Source: a virus
Length of the DNA: 11,376 nt
Reading direction: 5' to 3' (one strand)
UHGV virus genome: UHGV-0146776
A program made the translations under genes and the position numbers. The notes below the pieces were generated by a model. That model ran no database searches and was not told where the DNA came from. It worked only from the letters and a program-made list of their open reading frames with translations. The first letter of the stretch is position 1, and each line of letters starts with the position of its first letter. Positions 1,949 to 10,990 of this stretch are shown one piece after another.

Positions 1949-2254
1949 CTATGTTCCGGGATGAAACCGATACATTCGGAGTCCGGTATAGAAAAAATCA
2001 GGTACAGCATCCTGCATTTCCCTGTTCTCGTACCAGTAGCCAACCAGTTGCATAAGACGCAACTTTATCAGCGGTGTTATTACAAGCCCGGTCGTATCCT
2101 GATCAGGAACAGTTTCATCGTGAAGTGTCCGGTTTAAAAACTTTTCAGCCTCTTCTCTGGCTGCTGCCAGATACATCATAAGAAGTGCATTCTCCTGTTC
2201 ATTGTCATCATCAATCCGGCACTGAACACGAAGCTCTTCCAGAGTAGGCATCAT
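1949..2254 (-). CDS. Head-tail connector protein (phage gp6-like)
   Basis: 101 aa starting MMPTLEELRVQCRIDDDNEQENALLMMYLAAAREEAE, which matches the N-terminal signature of gp6-like head-tail connectors (L..L..RID.DD...L....AA). AGAGGT SD lies upstream of the ATG. Confidence 0.8.
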   Translation of the reverse strand: MMPTLEELRVQCRIDDDNEQENALLMMYLAAAREEAEKFLNRTLHDETVPDQDTTGLVITPLIKLRLMQLVGYWYENREMQDAVPDFFYTGLRMYRFHPGT

Positions 2255-2265
2255 TTGGGCTACCT

Positions 2266-2454
2266 CTATGAATGCTGTTTTTTAGCCTTATCAGATACCC
2301 GTGCAACAGGTGTTCTCTTATCAGAAACAATCCCTGCTGCAGTGGCAATTTCACGTACCCGTTCGGGTAATTCTTTATCTTCATACTCACCAGCACGAAT
2401 GATCTCAACGCGCATACCGTCCGGTGACCATTTCAGATCTTGTTTCAGGATCAT
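2266..2454 (-). CDS. Hypothetical small protein (62 aa) between major capsid and head-tail connector genes
   Basis: Track ORF 2266..2517 begins with TTG overlapping the capsid gene 3' end. The first ATG (2454..2452) is preceded by AGGTG at about 8 nt and lies just downstream of the post-capsid stem-loop. No recognisable motif. Confidence 0.4.
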   Translation of the reverse strand: MILKQDLKWSPDGMRVEIIRAGEYEDKELPERVREIATAAGIVSDKRTPVARVSDKAKKQHS

Positions 2455-2474
2455 GATTCTTGCACCTGTCAGAA

Positions 2475-2498
2475 CAGGGGCGCAATTCAGCGCCCCTG
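2475..2498 (-). other. Perfect 9-bp inverted repeat (stem-loop) immediately 3' of the major capsid gene
   Basis: CAGGGGCGC-aattca-GCGCCCCTG at 2475-2498, a few nt after the capsid stop (2504-2506 on minus). The following minus-strand sequence is UUCUGAC, only weakly U-rich, so this is a partial terminator or mRNA-stabilising hairpin rather than a strong terminator. Confidence 0.4.
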
Positions 2499-2503
2499 AG
2501 TGA

Positions 2504-3709
2504 TTACGCCGCTGCAATCTTCAGCAGTTTGATGGCCTGCGAATCGACCAGCATGCCGCCGGTGCGCTTGGTGGTATAAAAACCGACAAACGGTTTATTG
2601 GTGTACGGATCACGCAGAATGCGGGTACCGATACGGTCAACGATGGTGTAACCCCGTTTGAAGTTACCAAATGCAATAGCTTTCGCATCAGCGGCGATAT
2701 CCGGCATCTGTTCGTTTTCAGCGATACCGTAACCCGCCAGAGAGGACGGTTGCCCCAGCTCCAGCCCCGGACGCCACAGATAGTTACCCTCGGTGTCTTT
2801 CAGCAGACGGATGGCAAACAGGCTGTTGTTGTTCATCATGAACTTCGCGCCAGTGCGGTGTGCCTTACGCAGCGTGTAAATCAGTTTGATAATGGCGTCT
2901 GCGGTCACCGTCGTCGCTTCACCGGATACAATATGCTGAAGTTTACCGAACGCACGAACCTTATCGGTTTCATCGGTGGATTCATACACCAGGAACCCTT
3001 TTGGCTTCTTAGTGCCATCACCGGTGGTAAAGGCAATTTCTTCCTGTTCGGCAAATTCGGTCGCCAGCTCGCTGTTGATCCAGGCCTCCACGTTGAAGAA
3101 GGCATCATCCAGCATTTTCTGAGTGGCCTGCGGGTTACCGTAGATTTCCCCCATGAGAGGTTCAATCAGCTCCAGTCTGGAGGTGGCAGTCTGGGATCGC
3201 GTATCCGTTTCCCCCACCCATCCGGAAGCCGTACCGCCCAGATTCACCAGTTTTTTGTAGTCGGAACCGCCAACGGTGATCACCGTGGCTTCCTGACGCA
3301 TCACCACTTCATCTTTAAGCAGGTTGAGAATGTTGCGATCCAGCGCTTCCGGCACGGCATAGCCACCGTCTTCATCGGTGCCCACCTGCAATGCCTTACG
3401 CTCCAGATCGCGCAGACCGTCTTCACGGCCTTTACGCAGGAAGCACACAAACGCCTCTTTATGCTCGGTGGCCAGTTTATTTTGCGCACCACCTGCCGGA
3501 CGTTTCAGCTCAAGCAACTCTTTTTCAAGATCGCTTTTGAGGTTTTCCAGCTCGCTGAGTTTCCCGTTCAGGGTTTCCACCTGCCCGGCAAGTTTGCCTT
3601 TTTCCTGCTCAATCGCATCCACGCGCTTGTCGTTCTTTGCTTTGAAGTCGTCAAACTTCTGCTGCAGCTCCTGCGCGACCTGTTCCACATCTTTAATATC
3701 AACCGCCAT
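2504..3709 (-). CDS. Major capsid protein, HK97 family, with N-terminal delta (scaffolding) domain
   Basis: 401 aa. The N-terminal ~100 aa is a heptad-rich coiled coil (EQVAQELQQKFDDFKAKNDKRVDAIEQEKGKLAGQVETLNGKLSELENLKSDLEKELLELK), followed by a ~300-aa body typical of HK97-fold capsid proteins. It sits directly downstream of the prohead protease with no separate scaffold gene. Confidence 0.9.
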   Translation of the reverse strand: MAVDIKDVEQVAQELQQKFDDFKAKNDKRVDAIEQEKGKLAGQVETLNGKLSELENLKSDLEKELLELKRPAGGAQNKLATEHKEAFVCFLRKGREDGLRDLERKALQVGTDEDGGYAVPEALDRNILNLLKDEVVMRQEATVITVGGSDYKKLVNLGGTASGWVGETDTRSQTATSRLELIEPLMGEIYGNPQATQKMLDDAFFNVEAWINSELATEFAEQEEIAFTTGDGTKKPKGFLVYESTDETDKVRAFGKLQHIVSGEATTVTADAIIKLIYTLRKAHRTGAKFMMNNNSLFAIRLLKDTEGNYLWRPGLELGQPSSLAGYGIAENEQMPDIAADAKAIAFGNFKRGYTIVDRIGTRILRDPYTNKPFVGFYTTKRTGGMLVDSQAIKLLKIAAA

Positions 3710-3723
3710 CGTATTTCTCCTGA

Positions 3724-4374
3724 TTAGAAGTTCAGATTTTTCAGTGCATTCAGTGCAGAGCCCACATCCTCAGCGTCGCGCAGGGACAGTGCGCCATAGC
3801 CCCCGGCCATGAATGCTTTGGCCTGGGTACGGGAGAGTCCGACATCACGCAGGACTCTTTCGATTTTTTTCTGTTCGGGGATTTCCCCGCGGGCCAGTGC
3901 GTTCTTGACGTCGCTGATCCGCGCCTCGTCGTTAGACGGGAACGTCACCAGGCTGACTTCCCAGAGGTCGATTTCTTTCAGCAGAAAGGCTTCTTTGCTC
4001 CGGTCGTATTCCCAGTCTTTCAGGACGTACCCAATAGAAAGGCCGGTTAACGAACCGGCCTTCATGTGTGCATGTGCGCGTTTTGCGAGGGGATCATCAT
4101 CAATAAGCAACCGTCCCCTGACGTAAAGCCCGACATCGTCTTCCTTCATTTCGGTGTAAACACCGATGGGTTCATCCATGCGGTGCTGCCAGAGCAGCGC
4201 AGGTAACGCTTTTCTGTCACTCCACGCCCGCAGGGAAGCAGCAAATGCCCCGGACATCACCACATCATCGTGGCTGTCCTTTACACCAAAGACGGAGCCA
4301 TACCCTTCAAACTCACCGGAGTCACTGACAGATTTCAGACTCAGCGGTACATCAAGACGTTGTTTCGTCTGCAT
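3724..4374 (-). CDS. Prohead (capsid maturation) protease, HK97 family
   Basis: Track ORF 3724..4410. The ATG at 4410 has no SD and would overlap the portal gene by about 59 nt. The ATG at 4374..4372 is preceded by AAGGA at about 8 nt and does not overlap. Sequence GSVFGVKDSHDDVV...SIGY is consistent with the HK97 gp4-type protease, and the position is between portal and capsid. Confidence 0.8.
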   Translation of the reverse strand: MQTKQRLDVPLSLKSVSDSGEFEGYGSVFGVKDSHDDVVMSGAFAASLRAWSDRKALPALLWQHRMDEPIGVYTEMKEDDVGLYVRGRLLIDDDPLAKRAHAHMKAGSLTGLSIGYVLKDWEYDRSKEAFLLKEIDLWEVSLVTFPSNDEARISDVKNALARGEIPEQKKIERVLRDVGLSRTQAKAFMAGGYGALSLRDAEDVGSALNALKNLNF

Positions 4375-5593
4375 TGGCGTTATCCTTCTGCTTACCGGCT
4401 TTACTGCCATCGGAGGGTTTCGTGGTCATGTTCATCGGTGTGAGATAGACATCACCACCGGGACGCGGATTCATATCTTCCAGGTCGCGGCAGTCATTGG
4501 GAGAGTAAATTCCCCAGTTAATCCCGGTGGCGTAGGCTTCAAAACGGGACTTCATATCCCCGCGCAGTAACGCCCCGGCGTTAAATTTGGCGTAATAAAC
4601 GCCCTGCTTACTTTTTCGTACCAGTCCGGTGTTGATCCGCTGTTCGATGCGGGTCAGATACGGCACCAGTGAATAGTTGATAAATCCGAGCCCCAGTTCT
4701 TCGATATTGTTGAAGGTGGCGCGATCGGTGTTCTGCACCATGTGCAACGGTACCCGGAACAGACGACAGATTTCTTCAAGCTGAAACTTGCGGGTTTCCA
4801 GGAACTGGCTGTCCTCGGCGTTCAGCGCCATCGACTTCCAGTCCAGCCCCATCTCAAGGATCATCGGGCGGTGAGCATTGCCAAGCCCGGTGTGACGCTC
4901 CTCAAAATCTTTCTTCAGGCGCTCATAAGCCTGATCTGACAGCGTCTGCTCTGTACGCAACACACCCGACGTCACCGCGCCATTGCTGAACAGTCTGGCC
5001 CCGTGCTCTTCGGTCGCTGCCGCCAGCGATATTGCCTCGCGGGCATAGGCGATGGGATTCAGCCCCACCAGTCCGTCCAGCGTCAGCGTGCGCACATGCC
5101 AGATATCCTCCTGGCTCAGTACATCCGTGGAGCCATCCGGGAATGTGACCTGATAGACCGGCTCCCAGCTACTGTTAAGCTTCGGTACCACACAGCCGGG
5201 ATCGACGGGCAGCAGTTCAGCCACTTCGCCAAATGCTTTCACTTTGTAGGCGTAAAAGTTTCCCCGCAGGCACAGACAGGTGACCACCAGCTCCCAGAAC
5301 TCCTGCGGCGTCATATAGCCATTGGGATGCGTGGAGATCAGCTTATGCAGACGTTCGCCAGCGGCTCTCTGCTTCAGACTGCCGTTCAGGTGATACAGGT
5401 TGCAGGGCAACATCCCGACCGACTCCGCCAGCACCCTGACACAGGAAAAAACCGCCGTCAGTCGCATGGCCCGCTGGCTGCTGATCTGCTTTCCGGTATA
5501 GGTGTCGTAGGACAACCCGATAGCATCCGCCAGCTCTGCTGGCGTGGTCACCGGTGCGTCACTTTTTCGTTGAAATAATCCCGAAAAGAACAC
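4352..5593 (-). CDS. Portal protein, HK97 family
   Basis: 413 aa with GTG start at 5593, preceded by GGAGGT at 5-6 nt and overlapping the stop of the upstream small ORF (TAGTG). Size and position between terminase large subunit and protease fit a portal. Confidence 0.85.
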   Translation of the reverse strand: MFFSGLFQRKSDAPVTTPAELADAIGLSYDTYTGKQISSQRAMRLTAVFSCVRVLAESVGMLPCNLYHLNGSLKQRAAGERLHKLISTHPNGYMTPQEFWELVVTCLCLRGNFYAYKVKAFGEVAELLPVDPGCVVPKLNSSWEPVYQVTFPDGSTDVLSQEDIWHVRTLTLDGLVGLNPIAYAREAISLAAATEEHGARLFSNGAVTSGVLRTEQTLSDQAYERLKKDFEERHTGLGNAHRPMILEMGLDWKSMALNAEDSQFLETRKFQLEEICRLFRVPLHMVQNTDRATFNNIEELGLGFINYSLVPYLTRIEQRINTGLVRKSKQGVYYAKFNAGALLRGDMKSRFEAYATGINWGIYSPNDCRDLEDMNPRPGGDVYLTPMNMTTKPSDGSKAGKQKDNANADETTS

Positions 5594-5775
5594 TATTTAC
5601 CTCCGCCGACAGACGACTGTGTACGGTCGAGATATCGCGCCACCAGCCACGACCAGAACAGACACAACGCCCCGGCAACAACAAACCCCGCCGGGGGATA
5701 AATCAGCCAGGCACCATACGCCAGCAAAAGCGCCCCCAGCACGCCCACCAGAGGCGCGAGAATCAGCATGATCAT
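5593..5775 (-). CDS. Small hydrophobic protein (60 aa, two predicted transmembrane helices), function unknown
   Basis: ATG at 5775 preceded by GAGGT. The stop overlaps the portal GTG start and the portal SD lies inside its last codons (VGGGK = GUC GGC GGA GGU AAA). Sequence [49 protein letters not shown] is almost entirely hydrophobic. Confidence 0.5.
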
Positions 5776-5786
5776 AATTACCTCAG

Positions 5787-7520
5787 TTAAAGCGAGCGGA
5801 TCCCATAGGACTCAATGTGGTCAGACAGCGTGTCTTCTTTCTCGTACAGCATGGCTCTGCCAACCGCCATAATCAGCGCAACTGCACCATCGATTTTGTT
5901 TTCCGCCTGCTCTTTGACGGGCTTCACCACATCATCGTTACCCGGAATGGTTTTGCCGACCACGTTGCCGATACACCAGGTCATGATGGGATTGCCATCA
6001 TGATGAAAGCGCCCCGATTCAATTGCCGCTTCCAGCTCTTTCATCGGGTCGGACATGTTGGTGTAGTTCTGAATGATAGTGATGGGGTTCAGGTCTTCAT
6101 CAGCAAGGTCATGTGACAACCCGGTCGCCCCGAAGGGGTCGATGGGTGACTCACTGACCGGGCTGATTTTGTTCGCCGCTTTGGCCTCCTCGAGGATGTA
6201 GCGATAATCCACCTCCGCACCATCGGTAACGGTCAGAACGCCCATTTCCACCCATTTCTGAAAGCGTTCGGCTGTCCGTCGATCTTCATTTTTCTCGACG
6301 CTGTACACCGTGTCATACGGTACCCAGAAACGCGGGGCCACACTGTAGTAATGCGTTTTACCGTCAATCTCGCGGGTATAAAGTCGCGCCATGCTGTTCA
6401 TATCCAGCTTACGCGCCAGGTCAAAGGCCAGAATGCACGGCTGCCCCTCGAACTGCTCAAGGGTCAGTGATTTATCCTCGCAGCTCTGCCAGCTCACCAG
6501 GTTGAAATACGCCGAACGCGCCGACACCCAGATATTGAGGTGTTTTGTTTTAAAGACGTTTGCCAGACGGGCGTTATTTTTCGCACGCTGCTGCTGACTT
6601 AACAAAAATTCGCGATAAACCGACACGCCAATATTCGGGTTAGCTTTTTCCAGCACCTGCGGGTCGGTCCAGTCATCGCCTTCGTCAACGGTATAGATGA
6701 TCCCGAACAGTTCATCGTTGGGTACCGACCCGTTGAGCATCTCGATAACTTCCCGTCGCTTGTCGTAGCACGGCCCCTCAATGTTGTACCCGGCAGTAGT
6801 AATGGCCCACATCAGTGGCTGACGTCGCGCCCCCATCCCGGTAAGCATCGTGGTGTAAAGCGCATCGGTGGCGTGCTCGTGATATTCATCCACCACCGCA
6901 CAGTGGGGTGATGAACCATCACCGGGGTTACCGATCAGCGGTTCAAACCGCGCGCCATCCTCCGGACGATTCATGTTTGAGGCGTTAACCTCAATCCCGA
7001 ACGCTTCCGTCAGCATGGGTGTGCGTTTACACATCAGTCTTGCCGGACGAAAGACTTCCCATGCCTGTTTCTCCGTCGTGGCACCGGAATACACTTCCGC
7101 GCCGAACTCGTTATCACAGGCAAAACAATACAGGGCGACACCGGCAGAGATTGCTGATTTGCCGTTCTTACGGGGGATTTCGGTATACACCTCCCGGAAG
7201 CGGCGCAGCCGGGTGCCTTTATTGACCCAGCCAAACGCACAGCAGATCACAAAGAGCTGCCACGGCTCCAGCGTGATGGGCATCCTCTTGAATGCCCACT
7301 CACCCTTGGTGTGCGGCAACAGCTGAATAAATTTGGCGGCCCGTTCAGCCAGGTCCTTGTCGAAGCGGTAACGAAACGACTTACTTTTTTCCGCCATCAG
7401 GTCATCAAGATGGCGCTGGCAGGCCTGAATCACAAACTGGCAGGCCACAATCTTTCCGCGCACGACATCCCGGGCATACTGATTGGCAGCATTTACGTTG
7501 GGGTAAGATTTCCGGCTCAT
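5787..7520 (-). CDS. Terminase large subunit (ATPase/nuclease)
   Basis: 577 aa. Walker A-like [14 protein letters not shown] near the N-terminal third. ATGA overlap with the upstream terminase small subunit gene at 7517-7520. Position is directly upstream of portal. Confidence 0.9.
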
Positions 7521-8537: not shown

Positions 8538-9092
8538 TTATCTTGACTCAAATACAAATCTAGAAGAGATGAGCTTATCAAGCATTTTCATAAGTAAATC
8601 CTTACTCTCACCACCATTTATATATTTATTAAAGTTAGACTCGAACTCATGCCAAACTTTTTCTAACTCAGTATTATCAAATAAGTGCTCTGTCGCAAAC
8701 CATGAAGACTGGCAACAATCGAAAATACTCAAAAGTTCATCAAATCTTTTAACATTCTCTTCTCCCAACTCAATTTGCTGACTAATAAGATCTACATCTT
8801 TAAATAGCCATTTCGCAATAACTTGCTCTCGTTCATCATTGAGTTGCTCGGGGTCAATATTGACAGGCATAAATAATAGAGCTGTCTTTAATTTCTTTAA
8901 TGCATTCCTAAAATCTATTTTTACTTTTGTTTTCTCTTGTTCCCGCCACGTAAACAATGCCTTGAACGCCAAAAACAAAGTAACAATAGTAGCTCCAGCA
9001 CTCACCCAAGATGCAATCATTGCCCAACAAGCCCACTCAGCAGCAGCACGGTTTGCTACAAGTGTCTCATATGCAATATAATTTTCGTTCAT
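8538..9092 (-). CDS. Hypothetical membrane-anchored protein (184 aa) in AT-rich island; candidate moron / exclusion or defence protein
   Basis: Long ORF in DNA that is about one-third G+C on sampled lines, where chance ORFs are rare. ATG at 9092 preceded by GAGGT. One N-terminal hydrophobic segment (about residues 16-47), then KALFTWREQEKTKVK, then an acidic helix-prone ~135-aa domain. No family-level motif recognised. Confidence 0.75.
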   Translation of the reverse strand: MNENYIAYETLVANRAAAEWACWAMIASWVSAGATIVTLFLAFKALFTWREQEKTKVKIDFRNALKKLKTALLFMPVNIDPEQLNDEREQVIAKWLFKDVDLISQQIELGEENVKRFDELLSIFDCCQSSWFATEHLFDNTELEKVWHEFESNFNKYINGGESKDLLMKMLDKLISSRFVFESR

Positions 9093-9169: not shown

Positions 9170-9448
9170 CTAATGAATATTATTATTCAAATGCAGATTG
9201 AACTTTTGCTCTCCTAACCTACGAAGATCAGACTTATCACGGTTACATAGCCCCAGTGCTGATAGCAGACTTACATTCAAACTAAGACTATCCCCATAAG
9301 TCAGAGGATTGGGTATAACTGGCTGTGGAGTTTCAGCGAGCAGGTTCGTCGGTAACGGCATCGTTGGAACCTGCACGTATACTGTCCGCGTACTTCCGCA
9401 ACCGGTCAGCAGCGACATCAGGCACAGGGCGTGAAGCACAATCATCAT
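9170..9448 (-). CDS. Outer-membrane spanin (Rz1-like lipoprotein, o-spanin), overlapping the i-spanin gene
   Basis: Alternative frame inside the Rz gene and extending past it. Internal Met start gives MMIVLHALCLMSLLTGCGS, a signal peptide with lipobox LLTGC, followed by a Pro-rich segment (VQVPTMPLPTNLLAETPQPVIPNPL). Start codon choice (9448 versus 9514) and the C-terminal extent are uncertain. Confidence 0.6.
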   Translation of the reverse strand: MMIVLHALCLMSLLTGCGSTRTVYVQVPTMPLPTNLLAETPQPVIPNPLTYGDSLSLNVSLLSALGLCNRDKSDLRRLGEQKFNLHLNNNIH

Positions 9449-9725
9449 CCGCAACAGCCACTTTGATATCTTCCTGGGTTCTCTGTGACTCCAGTGCGAT
9501 CTGCTGTTTTGCATGTTGATTCGCCTCCTGAATGATGTTCGTTATTGCCATAGTACGCAGAACATTCGCGGTGATAGCCTCAGTAGAATCAGCTCGCTGT
9601 TCCGCAGCATCAGCACGCTTCTGCTCCTCCAGAAACTTTCCATGATAGTGATTCGCTGACCAGACAAGACCACCAGCGACACAAGCAATAAACGTTAAAA
9701 TGAGCGCCCAATAACTCATCTTCAT
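9333..9725 (-). CDS. Inner-membrane spanin (Rz-like, i-spanin)
   Basis: 130 aa with N-terminal TM helix (SYWALILTFIACVAGGLVW), then a charged coiled-coil-like periplasmic domain. ATGA overlap with the endolysin stop. Contains the lipoprotein ORF in another frame. Confidence 0.75.
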   Translation of the reverse strand: MKMSYWALILTFIACVAGGLVWSANHYHGKFLEEQKRADAAEQRADSTEAITANVLRTMAITNIIQEANQHAKQQIALESQRTQEDIKVAVADDDCASRPVPDVAADRLRKYADSIRAGSNDAVTDEPAR

Positions 9726-10336
9726 ACCAGCAGCGCCGCCCGCGCCTTGTTGTATCGGACCTTACGATCCTCAATACCGTTCAAACCGCCGTTAATGATG
9801 CGCGTAACACGGTTAATATCGGCACCGTAGATCATGCAACCTTTAGAGGTGTAGAACCATGCAGCTGAGCGCGCCGCCTGTAGTTCCTGTTCCAGTTGTT
9901 CAGGTGAAGTCACCAGATCTAACTTCAGCGCCGCGCCACAGATGCGATAATTATGGAGGCCAGTGATTTGAATTAATCCTCTACCACGATATTTCCAGCC
10001 ATCACCTGGTGCTTTGTTACCCAGTCGGTTGCTATACACCAGATTGGCAATAGCATCCTGACGAGCTGCATGTCCGGATGTTCTGCCAAGGGCATCAGCC
10101 TGCTGCTGTGTGATCCTCTTTCCGAACGTCGCCACAAGCGCAGATGGTGTGTAGTTAAGATTTTCAACTACGGCGCTAAACCCCATCGACTCATGGCCTG
10201 CCTGAGCGATAAACATTGCCTGATCCGCTGGTGCTGTAATGCCGAATTCCTTCATCGCCGCATCAATGTGCGGAAACCAGCGCGCAGCCAGCCCGGCGCT
10301 AATACCAGCCGCCTTTTGAAATAATTGTTGGTTCAT
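9722..10336 (-). CDS. Endolysin, glycoside hydrolase family 19 (chitinase-like lysozyme)
   Basis: 204 aa. Motif KYRGRGLIQITGLHNY is characteristic of GH19 catalytic domains. ATG at 10336 overlaps the upstream stop (TAATG) with GAGG SD. Flanked by membrane proteins upstream and spanins downstream. Confidence 0.85.
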   Translation of the reverse strand: MNQQLFQKAAGISAGLAARWFPHIDAAMKEFGITAPADQAMFIAQAGHESMGFSAVVENLNYTPSALVATFGKRITQQQADALGRTSGHAARQDAIANLVYSNRLGNKAPGDGWKYRGRGLIQITGLHNYRICGAALKLDLVTSPEQLEQELQAARSAAWFYTSKGCMIYGADINRVTRIINGGLNGIEDRKVRYNKARAALLV

Positions 10337-10617
10337 TAGTGCCTCAGATGATCAACCAGACGTGCAACGTTGCCTCTGACGGCCACCAGCACGGAAAGAA
10401 AAATAGTATTCGCCACGATAATGGGCCATGAGGAATGGGGATAAATCCCACAGAGATAGGCCAATGGAACAGCACTGTATGTAACAGTAATCAGCCAGGC
10501 TAAACGTGAAACCCAAGGACGATGCCGCGAATCACCACGACGATAAAACATCAGAGTAATAACAACACAAGCACATAACAGCGCATTTATAGTTGCTGTC
10601 GGGTCATTTAGCTCCAC
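10336..10617 (-). CDS. Small 3-TM membrane protein in lysis cassette (putative holin or antiholin partner)
   Basis: 93 aa with GTG start at 10617 preceded by GGAGGT at about 4 nt, overlapping the last 14 nt of the upstream holin gene. Three hydrophobic segments. Stop overlaps the endolysin start. Confidence 0.55.
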   Translation of the reverse strand: MELNDPTATINALLCACVVITLMFYRRGDSRHRPWVSRLAWLITVTYSAVPLAYLCGIYPHSSWPIIVANTIFLSVLVAVRGNVARLVDHLRH

Positions 10618-10990
10618 CTGAACCTCCCCGGCGCGTTATGAGCGCCACCAGCGAGCCGATATCCTGATTATTCAGGAATGTCAGGATTTTAACGGCTAAA
10701 GCAGAGACGATTACGGCACCAATAGCATCCAGAGGTTTATCACTGTATCCGGTCAAGTTCGCCAGCTTGGAGCCAACCAACCCAGAGCATAGGATCCCGG
10801 CAATATATGACACGATAAAATATGCCAGTCGGCGTGATGCACTCAGATCTGCTGCTGTTGCTATGTAGAATACAGCCCCTGCAAATGCGCCAAATACAAC
10901 GCCGTAATCAGTTCCGGTCAGCAGTCCATAAACACTGGCACCCGTCAGGGCACCACCAGCCAGCCCAGTACCGGAAATCGGATCGGACAT
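10604..10990 (-). CDS. Putative holin (Gly/Ala-rich multi-TM membrane protein)
   Basis: 128 aa with ATG at 10990 preceded by AGAGGGG. Multiple hydrophobic Gly/Ala-rich helices and a charged C-terminal tail (RRGGSGGAK). First gene of the lysis cassette upstream of the endolysin. Family not recognised with certainty. Confidence 0.6.
   Translation of the reverse strand: MSDPISGTGLAGGALTGASVYGLLTGTDYGVVFGAFAGAVFYIATAADLSASRRLAYFIVSYIAGILCSGLVGSKLANLTGYSDKPLDAIGAVIVSALAVKILTFLNNQDIGSLVALITRRGGSGGAK

Follow-up and report, generated by a model that had tools for sequence, protein, structure and literature searches.

We report here that the virus genome UHGV-0146776, a stretch of 11,376 nucleotides that is called the window throughout this text, carries a small gene, ymfR, between its genes for the terminase large subunit (TerL) and the HK97-family portal protein; it is almost certainly a real, selected protein-coding gene, and its product is probably a late-expressed membrane hairpin that is translationally coupled to the portal. 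The open reading frame (ORF) occupies positions 5593..5775 of the minus strand, on which all of the genes of the window lie, and runs over 60 codons from an ATG at 5775..5773 to a TAG stop codon at 5595..5593. The product is 100% identical to YmfR of Escherichia coli K-12 (b1150, prophage e14), a previously named, uncharacterised phage protein of family IPR020297. Across Proteobacterial phages, the small gene is passed on together with the portal gene, not with the TerL gene. With regard to its role, the reading that we favour, by analogy with gp40 of phage T4 and with a probability of roughly one in three, is that YmfR acts late and in the inner membrane as a partner in the assembly of the portal or procapsid.

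The association with the portal gene was assessed in 18 true genome loci (a 19th, L024, being a false positive), in 80 of at least 563 matching IMG/VR contigs and in several reference phages. TerL, the small gene and the portal gene were located by hidden Markov models built iteratively from the loci, and the locus search used a tighter subset of the family, the 46-member alignment being too divergent for this purpose. The small gene was found directly upstream of a same-strand HK97-family portal gene in all 18 genome loci and, among the 80 viral loci, in each one of sufficient length, a linkage that spans phages of alpha-, beta- and gammaproteobacteria. Independent gene calls and Pfam labels gave the same order, namely, HNH, Terminase_4, TerL, small gene, Phage_portal, protease and Phage_capsid, in Nitrobacter, Aliamphritea and a Sphingomonadales genome. 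TerL is, as a rule, the next gene upstream of the small gene; in eight IMG/VR loci (L028, L030-L032, L036-L037, L039 and L052), 0.3 to 2 kb of other sequence separates the two, and the small gene remains with the portal gene. At two of these loci, L028 and L030, the automatic start call lengthens the small ORF upstream to 124 amino acids (aa), which may be an artefact or a real N-terminal extension.

The sequences of the three genes support the same partnership. Over 56 unique loci with three complete genes, the identity of the small proteins correlated with that of the portals (Spearman 0.60, partial 0.52) more strongly than with that of the TerL proteins (Spearman 0.38, partial 0.16). In 179 mosaic pairs of loci, with similar portals (78%) and unrelated TerL proteins (35%), the small proteins were 62% identical, whereas in 31 pairs of the reverse kind, in which TerL is similar and the portal is different, they were 36% identical, which equals background. 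The TerL of Shigella phage SfV illustrates such a junction: it is 97% identical to that of the window up to residue 566, beyond which a different two-helix ORF and a portal of only 28% identity follow.

The signals at the two ends of ymfR are tightly packed. The ATG is preceded by a Shine-Dalgarno (SD) sequence, GAGGT (5780..5784), that lies 4-5 nt upstream of it and 2 nt past the TerL stop codon TAA (5789..5787), and the GAGG within this SD is invariant across 20 orthologous upstream regions. The SD of the portal gene, GGAGG (5600..5604), lies within ymfR codons 58-59 and so accounts for the conserved Gly-Gly (GG[E/D/K]) at the C-terminus of the protein, and the ymfR TAG and the portal GTG start (5593..5591) share one base in the overlap TAGTG (5591..5595), in place of which relatives have TAATG or TGATG. 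The ORF with its ATG, its SD, the TAGTG overlap and the portal SD within the last codons had been listed in a preliminary description of the window, made from its letters, and all of them are present. Among 76 distinct members of the family, a 1-nt overlap of stop and portal start (TAATG, TGATG or TAGTG) was found in 64, a 4-nt overlap (ATGA) in 5 and a zero gap in 2, the remaining members having gaps of up to 15 nt or, in SfV, an overlap of 11 nt. The constant downstream partner in the window is the portal gene at 4352..5593 (413 aa; PF04860, E=1e-107), and the usual, non-obligatory upstream neighbour is the TerL gene at 5787..7520 (577 aa; PF03354 and PF20441).

The preliminary description had left room for a non-functional ORF in a G+C-rich spacer, and the comparative data refute the idea that this region is a mere spacer or an RNA element only, such as the terminator that is annotated here in SfII. 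What speaks for such an idea is a terminator-like hairpin with a TTTT run inside ymfR (5757..5730) and the existence of some frameshifted copies in the databases. The ratio of nonsynonymous to synonymous differences (pN/pS), however, is lowest in the frame of ymfR itself (0.42, versus 0.98 and 1.69 in the shifted sense frames), so that purifying selection is frame specific. Pairwise ratios of nonsynonymous to synonymous substitution (dN/dS) ranged from 0.1 to 0.4, with synonymous sites often saturated, among 17 orthologues from Escherichia, Klebsiella, Mangrovibacter, Scandinavium, Citrobacter, Serratia, Yersinia phage PY54, Martelella and an Alcaligenaceae metagenome-assembled genome (MAG). 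The protein motif is kept across very different nucleotide sequences and G+C contents, conservation extends to members of ~35-40% identity, and the position is fixed in more than 100 loci, whereas the long stem and T-run of the hairpin are not conserved outside the E. coli/Shigella clade. Nor is the region unusually rich in G+C, its content of 0.56-0.57 falling within the range of the neighbouring genes (0.49-0.63).

The distribution of intact and broken copies points in the same direction. A search with the single sequence gave 167 clusters, of which the large ones, each of up to ~1000 contigs, are intact 60-mers, whereas the frameshifted variants are mostly singletons with ~1-7 contigs each; disruption of the ORF in relatives, which the preliminary description had held up as evidence against a gene, is thus the exception, and the ORF stands. 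In complete E. coli genomes, 24 full-length matches were sampled, and under each of them the NCBI Prokaryotic Genome Annotation Pipeline (PGAP) calls a coding sequence. When the family profile was run against 1.84 billion representative proteins, it recovered 376 clusters at 50% identity, nearly all of 45-80 aa, and a database of 5.8 billion sequences gave at least 1824 clusters at 90% identity, of ~60-aa proteins. A tblastn search of GenBank phages with divergent members yielded nothing for one query and only Azospirillum phage Cd as an addition for the other, probably because the low-complexity filter masks helix 1. Three of the collected loci are decaying prophages: L015, a second ymfR copy in Shigella flexneri SFBU0723, has a 1-nt deletion with a frameshift after residue 27 next to an intact TerL and portal, and L006 and L008 (E. 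coli ECGI0523 and ECDA1023) have an intact ymfR beside a TerL that is matched only from residue 200 and a portal that is matched only to residue 139.

The protein was described beforehand as a small two-helix membrane protein, a description that is borne out by its hydrophobicity, by structure prediction and by its match to PHROG 502 "membrane protein" (E=2.5e-28, residues 1-55 on a profile of 58 positions). The grand average of hydropathy (GRAVY) of YmfR is 1.22, and the first charged residue is R47. AlphaFold2, run with the 46-sequence alignment, predicted a helix over residues 2-25, a turn at 26-28 and a second helix over 29-56, with a mean predicted local distance difference test (pLDDT) score of 84. 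Predicted transmembrane (TM) helix 1 (residues 2-25; 5701..5772) carries the invariant G14, G21 and W23; the short, uncharged turn (Y-P-P, residues 26-28; 5692..5700), predicted to be periplasmic, includes P28; and predicted TM helix 2 (residues 29-47; 5635..5691, extended to residue 56 in the AlphaFold2 model) carries the invariant G30 and G35. Across 46 diverse members with 34-52% identity to YmfR, the five glycine and tryptophan positions never vary and P28 shows at least 90% conservation, giving the family signature G..L.[SA][YF]GAW[LM][IV]Y.PAG[FY]I..G. Mean numbers of Lys plus Arg across the family are 2.06 in the N-tail, 0.03 in the turn and 0.76 in the C-tail, and the turn is 3-5 residues long and uncharged; positive charge on both tails and none in the turn predicts a hairpin with both ends in the cytoplasm and a minimal periplasmic turn. 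Selection follows this architecture, with a pN/pS of 0.28 in the hairpin core (residues 8-47) and of 0.83, that is, near neutrality, at residues 48-57 of the predicted cytoplasmic tail (residues 48-60; 5596..5634), from which the terminal GG[K/E/D] is excepted. Four members (P0152, P0163, P0184 and P0244; 102-122 aa) are tandem duplications of the whole hairpin with the GAW..PAG motif in each half, which suggests a structured, self-associating protein. A profile search of the PDB with the family gave nothing at E<=1, a Foldseek comparison of the AlphaFold2 model with viral structures gave uncharacterised small proteins only, none at E<=0.001, and Pfam and NCBIfam scans of the ORF gave sub-threshold matches to generic membrane families only.

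The signals at the junction also allow for an alternative in which ymfR is mainly a translational device, delivering ribosomes to the portal start, with the nascent hairpin bringing the mRNA and ribosome to the membrane or setting the level of portal, and with little function left to the mature peptide. The overlap of stop and start and the embedded SD are kept throughout the family, the SD accounts for the C-terminal Gly-Gly, and the enterobacterial members have, in addition, an RNA stem-loop (CGCGCC-tctggtg-GGCGTG, 5740..5758) with a 6-bp stem and a 7-nt loop, located 15 nt past the ATG in codons 6-12 of ymfR, that hints at regulation of translation. In the E. coli/Shigella clade, this stem lengthens into the terminator-like hairpin. 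An alignment of 20 distinct enterobacterial orthologues has 98.3% of its cells paired in the short stem, compared with 34-53% in slid controls, and the third positions of codon 7 (Ala/Thr) and codon 11 (Gly) covary synonymously (GC in 8, CG in 6, UA in 5 and GU in 1), the covariation score of the stem being matched by none of 500 shuffles. Since the conserved T/A-P...G-V codons largely dictate the other pairs of the stem, the evidence consists of this single covarying pair, and the stem-loop may, from the alignment, be a translational control element. On the other hand, a device of this kind would not require the five invariant Gly/Trp positions and the PAG[FY] turn to be kept at 35-40% identity, nor a pN/pS of 0.28 in the hairpin core; any hydrophobic hairpin would suffice for membrane targeting, and the tandem duplications suggest a protein that folds and associates with itself. 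We therefore consider it rather improbable that translation of the portal is the main purpose of ymfR.

The late expression of YmfR is suggested by its surroundings. The gene is located inside an operon of the order HNH, terminase small subunit (TerS), TerL, small gene, portal, protease and capsid. A consensus scan, which is weak evidence, found no sigma-70-like site between the TerL codons and the ymfR ATG, and the number of such sites in the 4.3-kb region was at chance level, so that ymfR is most simply regarded as part of the late structural operon. Consistent with this, the K-12 transcriptome showed ymfR increased ~4.5 log2 together with other e14 genes under LP-600, a treatment that also induces the SOS response (PMC10012262), and this co-induction with the rest of e14 fits membership of a late operon. 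The suggestion that ymfR might be a small moron is not supported, on these grounds: no promoter-like site was found in front of it, the internal terminator-like hairpin is not conserved, the synteny is strict rather than sporadic, the composition is ordinary, and the gene is induced with the other genes of its prophage.

According to the mechanism that we propose, YmfR would be made late in infection, in an amount that translational coupling links to that of the portal; it would insert in the inner membrane, resembling in this the small hairpins that are inserted by YidC and the signal recognition particle; it would act together with the portal; and it would most likely supply a membrane-associated site or chaperone for the initiation of the portal ring or procapsid, or else place portal synthesis at the membrane. 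The functional model is phage T4, in which assembly of the portal gp20 at the inner membrane relies on the phage chaperone gp40 together with host YidC (PMC9958956, PMC4493910). gp40 is likewise a phage membrane protein, one that cooperates with the portal when head assembly begins; it differs from YmfR in size and gene position, the comparison is drawn from gene linkage and the T4 literature as a hypothesis only, and a membrane-bound assembly step such as that of T4 has no known counterpart in HK97-type phages.

Several observations weigh against this proposal: (i) the tails, which are the parts able to touch a cytoplasmic portal, are short, variable in length and near neutral (pN/pS 0.83); (ii) conservation lies within the membrane and the periplasmic turn, a pattern better explained by a partner in the membrane or host, or by packing of the hairpin with itself, than by direct binding of the portal; (iii) HK97 and its close relatives (loci collected with the HK97 portal, 96-100% identical) have no small gene between TerL and portal, so that portals of this type do not generally need one; (iv) with stop and start overlapping and the SD embedded, the two genes are hard to separate, so that linkage and co-inheritance would arise anyway; (v) no fusion of the hairpin to a portal was found among the top matches listed, all of which are of at most 122 aa; and (vi) replacement of ymfR in K-12 gives no phenotype (PMC9145139), which says little because e14 is defective.

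Some of these points favour a different explanation, in which YmfR is a host-directed accessory membrane protein of the late operon, acting, for example, in superinfection exclusion, in a block of DNA entry, in modulation of membrane potential or lysis timing, or against host defence, and in which adjacency to the portal gene is just a stable niche. Small inner-membrane proteins encoded in structural operons can be exclusion proteins, an example being gp15 of HK97. The PHROGs category of family 502 is "moron, auxiliary metabolic gene and host takeover", the conserved residues and the variable cytoplasmic tails are distributed as would fit a target in the membrane or the host, and HK97-type phages without the small gene are viable. 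Such a function is, however, difficult to reconcile with strict portal synteny across alpha-, beta- and gammaproteobacterial phages and a stop/start overlap in 69 of the 76 members, which is unlike the sporadic occurrence of morons; with the lack of a promoter-like site or compositional difference in the scans made here; and with the induction of ymfR together with lytic genes instead of constitutively. In addition, a full set of holins, endolysin and spanins is encoded elsewhere, and YmfR has no similarity to holin families. We regard the accessory function as possible and, on the whole, unlikely.

YmfR shares small size and two TM helices with the class II holins and pinholins; ymfR is, however, located outside the lysis cassette and is coupled to the portal gene, not to an endolysin gene. 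The candidate assignment as a holin or pinholin found no support in location or sequence: no holin family was matched in the Pfam, PHROG and NCBIfam scans and the complete lysis cassette of the window, comprising holins of families PHROG 198 and PHROG 217, an endolysin and Rz/Rz1, lies 3.4 kb away at 9170..10990.

The coupling of ymfR to the portal gene could also be read in terms of the virion, with YmfR as a minor virion or ejection component, packaged at or in the portal vertex, that is released on infection to help form a conduit for DNA through the inner membrane. Co-expression with the portal in matching amounts and a hydrophobic hairpin shape like that of channel-forming peptides would agree with this role. 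We nevertheless judge it very unlikely: no solved structure has a relative of YmfR, a protein with a GRAVY of 1.22 has almost no soluble surface and is unlikely to be carried in a capsid, and literature searches found no virion proteomics that reports it. Myoviruses and siphoviruses with HK97-type heads, moreover, use tail proteins for passage through the membrane.

Comparison with other phages shows that the slot between TerL and portal is occupied in a large group of them. The preliminary description had held that the two genes are normally adjacent in HK97-type modules; this is correct for HK97 itself and does not apply to the group of P27, SfII, SfV, PY54, phiE125, D3, Azospirillum phage Cd and Sfi21, in which an ORF of ~55-65 aa with two helices lies in the slot. 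The small ORF of SfV and gp3 of Burkholderia phage phiE125 are, like YmfR, two-helix proteins (53-61 aa) between TerL and portal; both match the family profile (bit scores of 23 and 27, respectively) and PHROG 502 (E=5.7e-6, a weak match, and 5e-15, which makes phiE125 gp3 a member). They are only distantly related to YmfR in sequence, and their portals are ~28-35% identical to that of the window. The SfV ORF also matches PHROG 7105 (E=3e-22). In Pseudomonas phage D3, orf3 (PHROG 4810, 2107..2271) and, in Streptococcus phage Sfi21, orf59c (DUF1056, 2424..2603) fill the same position with 54-59 aa and two hydrophobic segments. The family profile gave an E value of 0.22 against D3 orf3, that is, no detectable homology, and YmfR had no match to DUF1056 (PF06341) at E<=1, which orf59c itself matches at E=7e-10. 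A remote homology between the YmfR family and DUF1056 was likewise discarded (hhalign probability, 0.2%). D3 orf3 and DUF1056 are positional and architectural analogues of YmfR only, and their occurrence suggests that a small membrane hairpin before HK97-type portal genes either recurs or is very old.

A broader and more speculative extension of the portal-partner proposal, which we think is improbable as it stands, is that the YmfR hairpins and these analogues form an overlooked core of HK97-type head assembly, in which an inner-membrane oligomer or YidC-engaging adaptor, made one-for-one with the portal through translational coupling, would nucleate or position the dodecameric portal at the membrane. 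Were this true, membrane-initiated procapsid assembly of the T4 type (gp40/gp20) would be widespread among temperate phages, and the tandem-duplicated members would reflect self-association of the hairpin.

As a feature, ymfR is ordinary, being an annotated gene in a quarter of complete E. coli genomes: the TerL-ymfR-portal junction is present in 1373 of 5426, and PGAP calls the gene ymfR. Assignment of the window ORF to YmfR, PHROG 502 and IPR020297 is supported by the profile match, by the ~60-aa hairpin with its core motif and by the site directly 5' of the portal gene. There is no difference in protein from K-12; the K-12 copy, flanked by the terminase remnant ymfN and the portal remnant beeE, is part of a decayed prophage, whereas the head, packaging and lysis modules of the window are intact. 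Around ymfR, the DNA of the window matches Shigella phages SfII, SfIV and SfI, Salmonella phage ST64B and related E. coli phages at 96-99.8% identity and the Stx-phage phiP27 at 90%, and the ORF is already annotated as a "(putative integral) membrane protein" in SfII (SfII_03), ST64B (Sb3) and phiP27 (L37), and as a membrane protein in SfI too. In the papers searched, ymfR appears only as a site for neutral integration, within deletions of e14 or among the e14 genes induced by a drug treatment that also triggers the SOS response, and our searches on ymfR, b1150 and IPR020297, on small terminase-portal membrane proteins and on the SfII, SfIV and ST64B genomes found no functional statement.

Elsewhere, the annotation of the gene is uneven. 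In ON470603, ON470584, ON470580 and PQ793804, the YmfR ORF is labelled "head-tail joining protein W", which appears to be a positional transfer from phage lambda without support from sequence or fold. Lambda gpW is a soluble protein and has only the position between TerL and portal in common with YmfR; an identity with gpW was rejected, since there is no Pfam match and YmfR is a predicted hydrophobic hairpin (GRAVY 1.22). The SfIV records have no feature over an ORF identical to ymfR, and in PY54 (NC_005069), an unannotated 65-aa YmfR homologue at 2295..2492 occupies a "gap" of 190 nt. In SfV (NC_003444), the unannotated 53-aa two-helix ORF at 2289..2450 overlaps the annotated portal start at 2392, which is probably mis-called. 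Two records carry sequences 96-100% identical to the TerL-ymfR-portal region of E. coli and Shigella under Gram-positive names, namely, L007 ("MAG: Bacillota bacterium", a 5.6-kb contig) and OR844959 ("Enterococcus phage Efm 3-10", 1764 bp); both most likely stem from contamination or mis-binning and not from Gram-positive hosts.

Apart from ymfR, the window contains on its minus strand, in the interval between the HNH endonuclease and spanin genes, an ORF of 184 aa at 8538..9092 that matches PHROG 6169 (E=1e-74), to which no function is assigned there. It has a hydrophobic stretch near the N-terminus and is located at the boundary of lysis and packaging genes, a typical place for accessory genes.

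To conclude, YmfR was already known and named, and what we did not find in the searchable literature is the description of a membrane hairpin whose gene is linked to that of the portal in thousands of sequences from Proteobacterial phages and which has analogues in other lineages. There is a direct gain for annotation, since ymfR is often missed (SfIV, SfV and PY54) or labelled "head-tail joining protein W", and where it is missed or mislabelled, portal starts are then mis-called. If YmfR does work alongside the portal, a very large group of temperate phages would assemble their heads with a step at the membrane.

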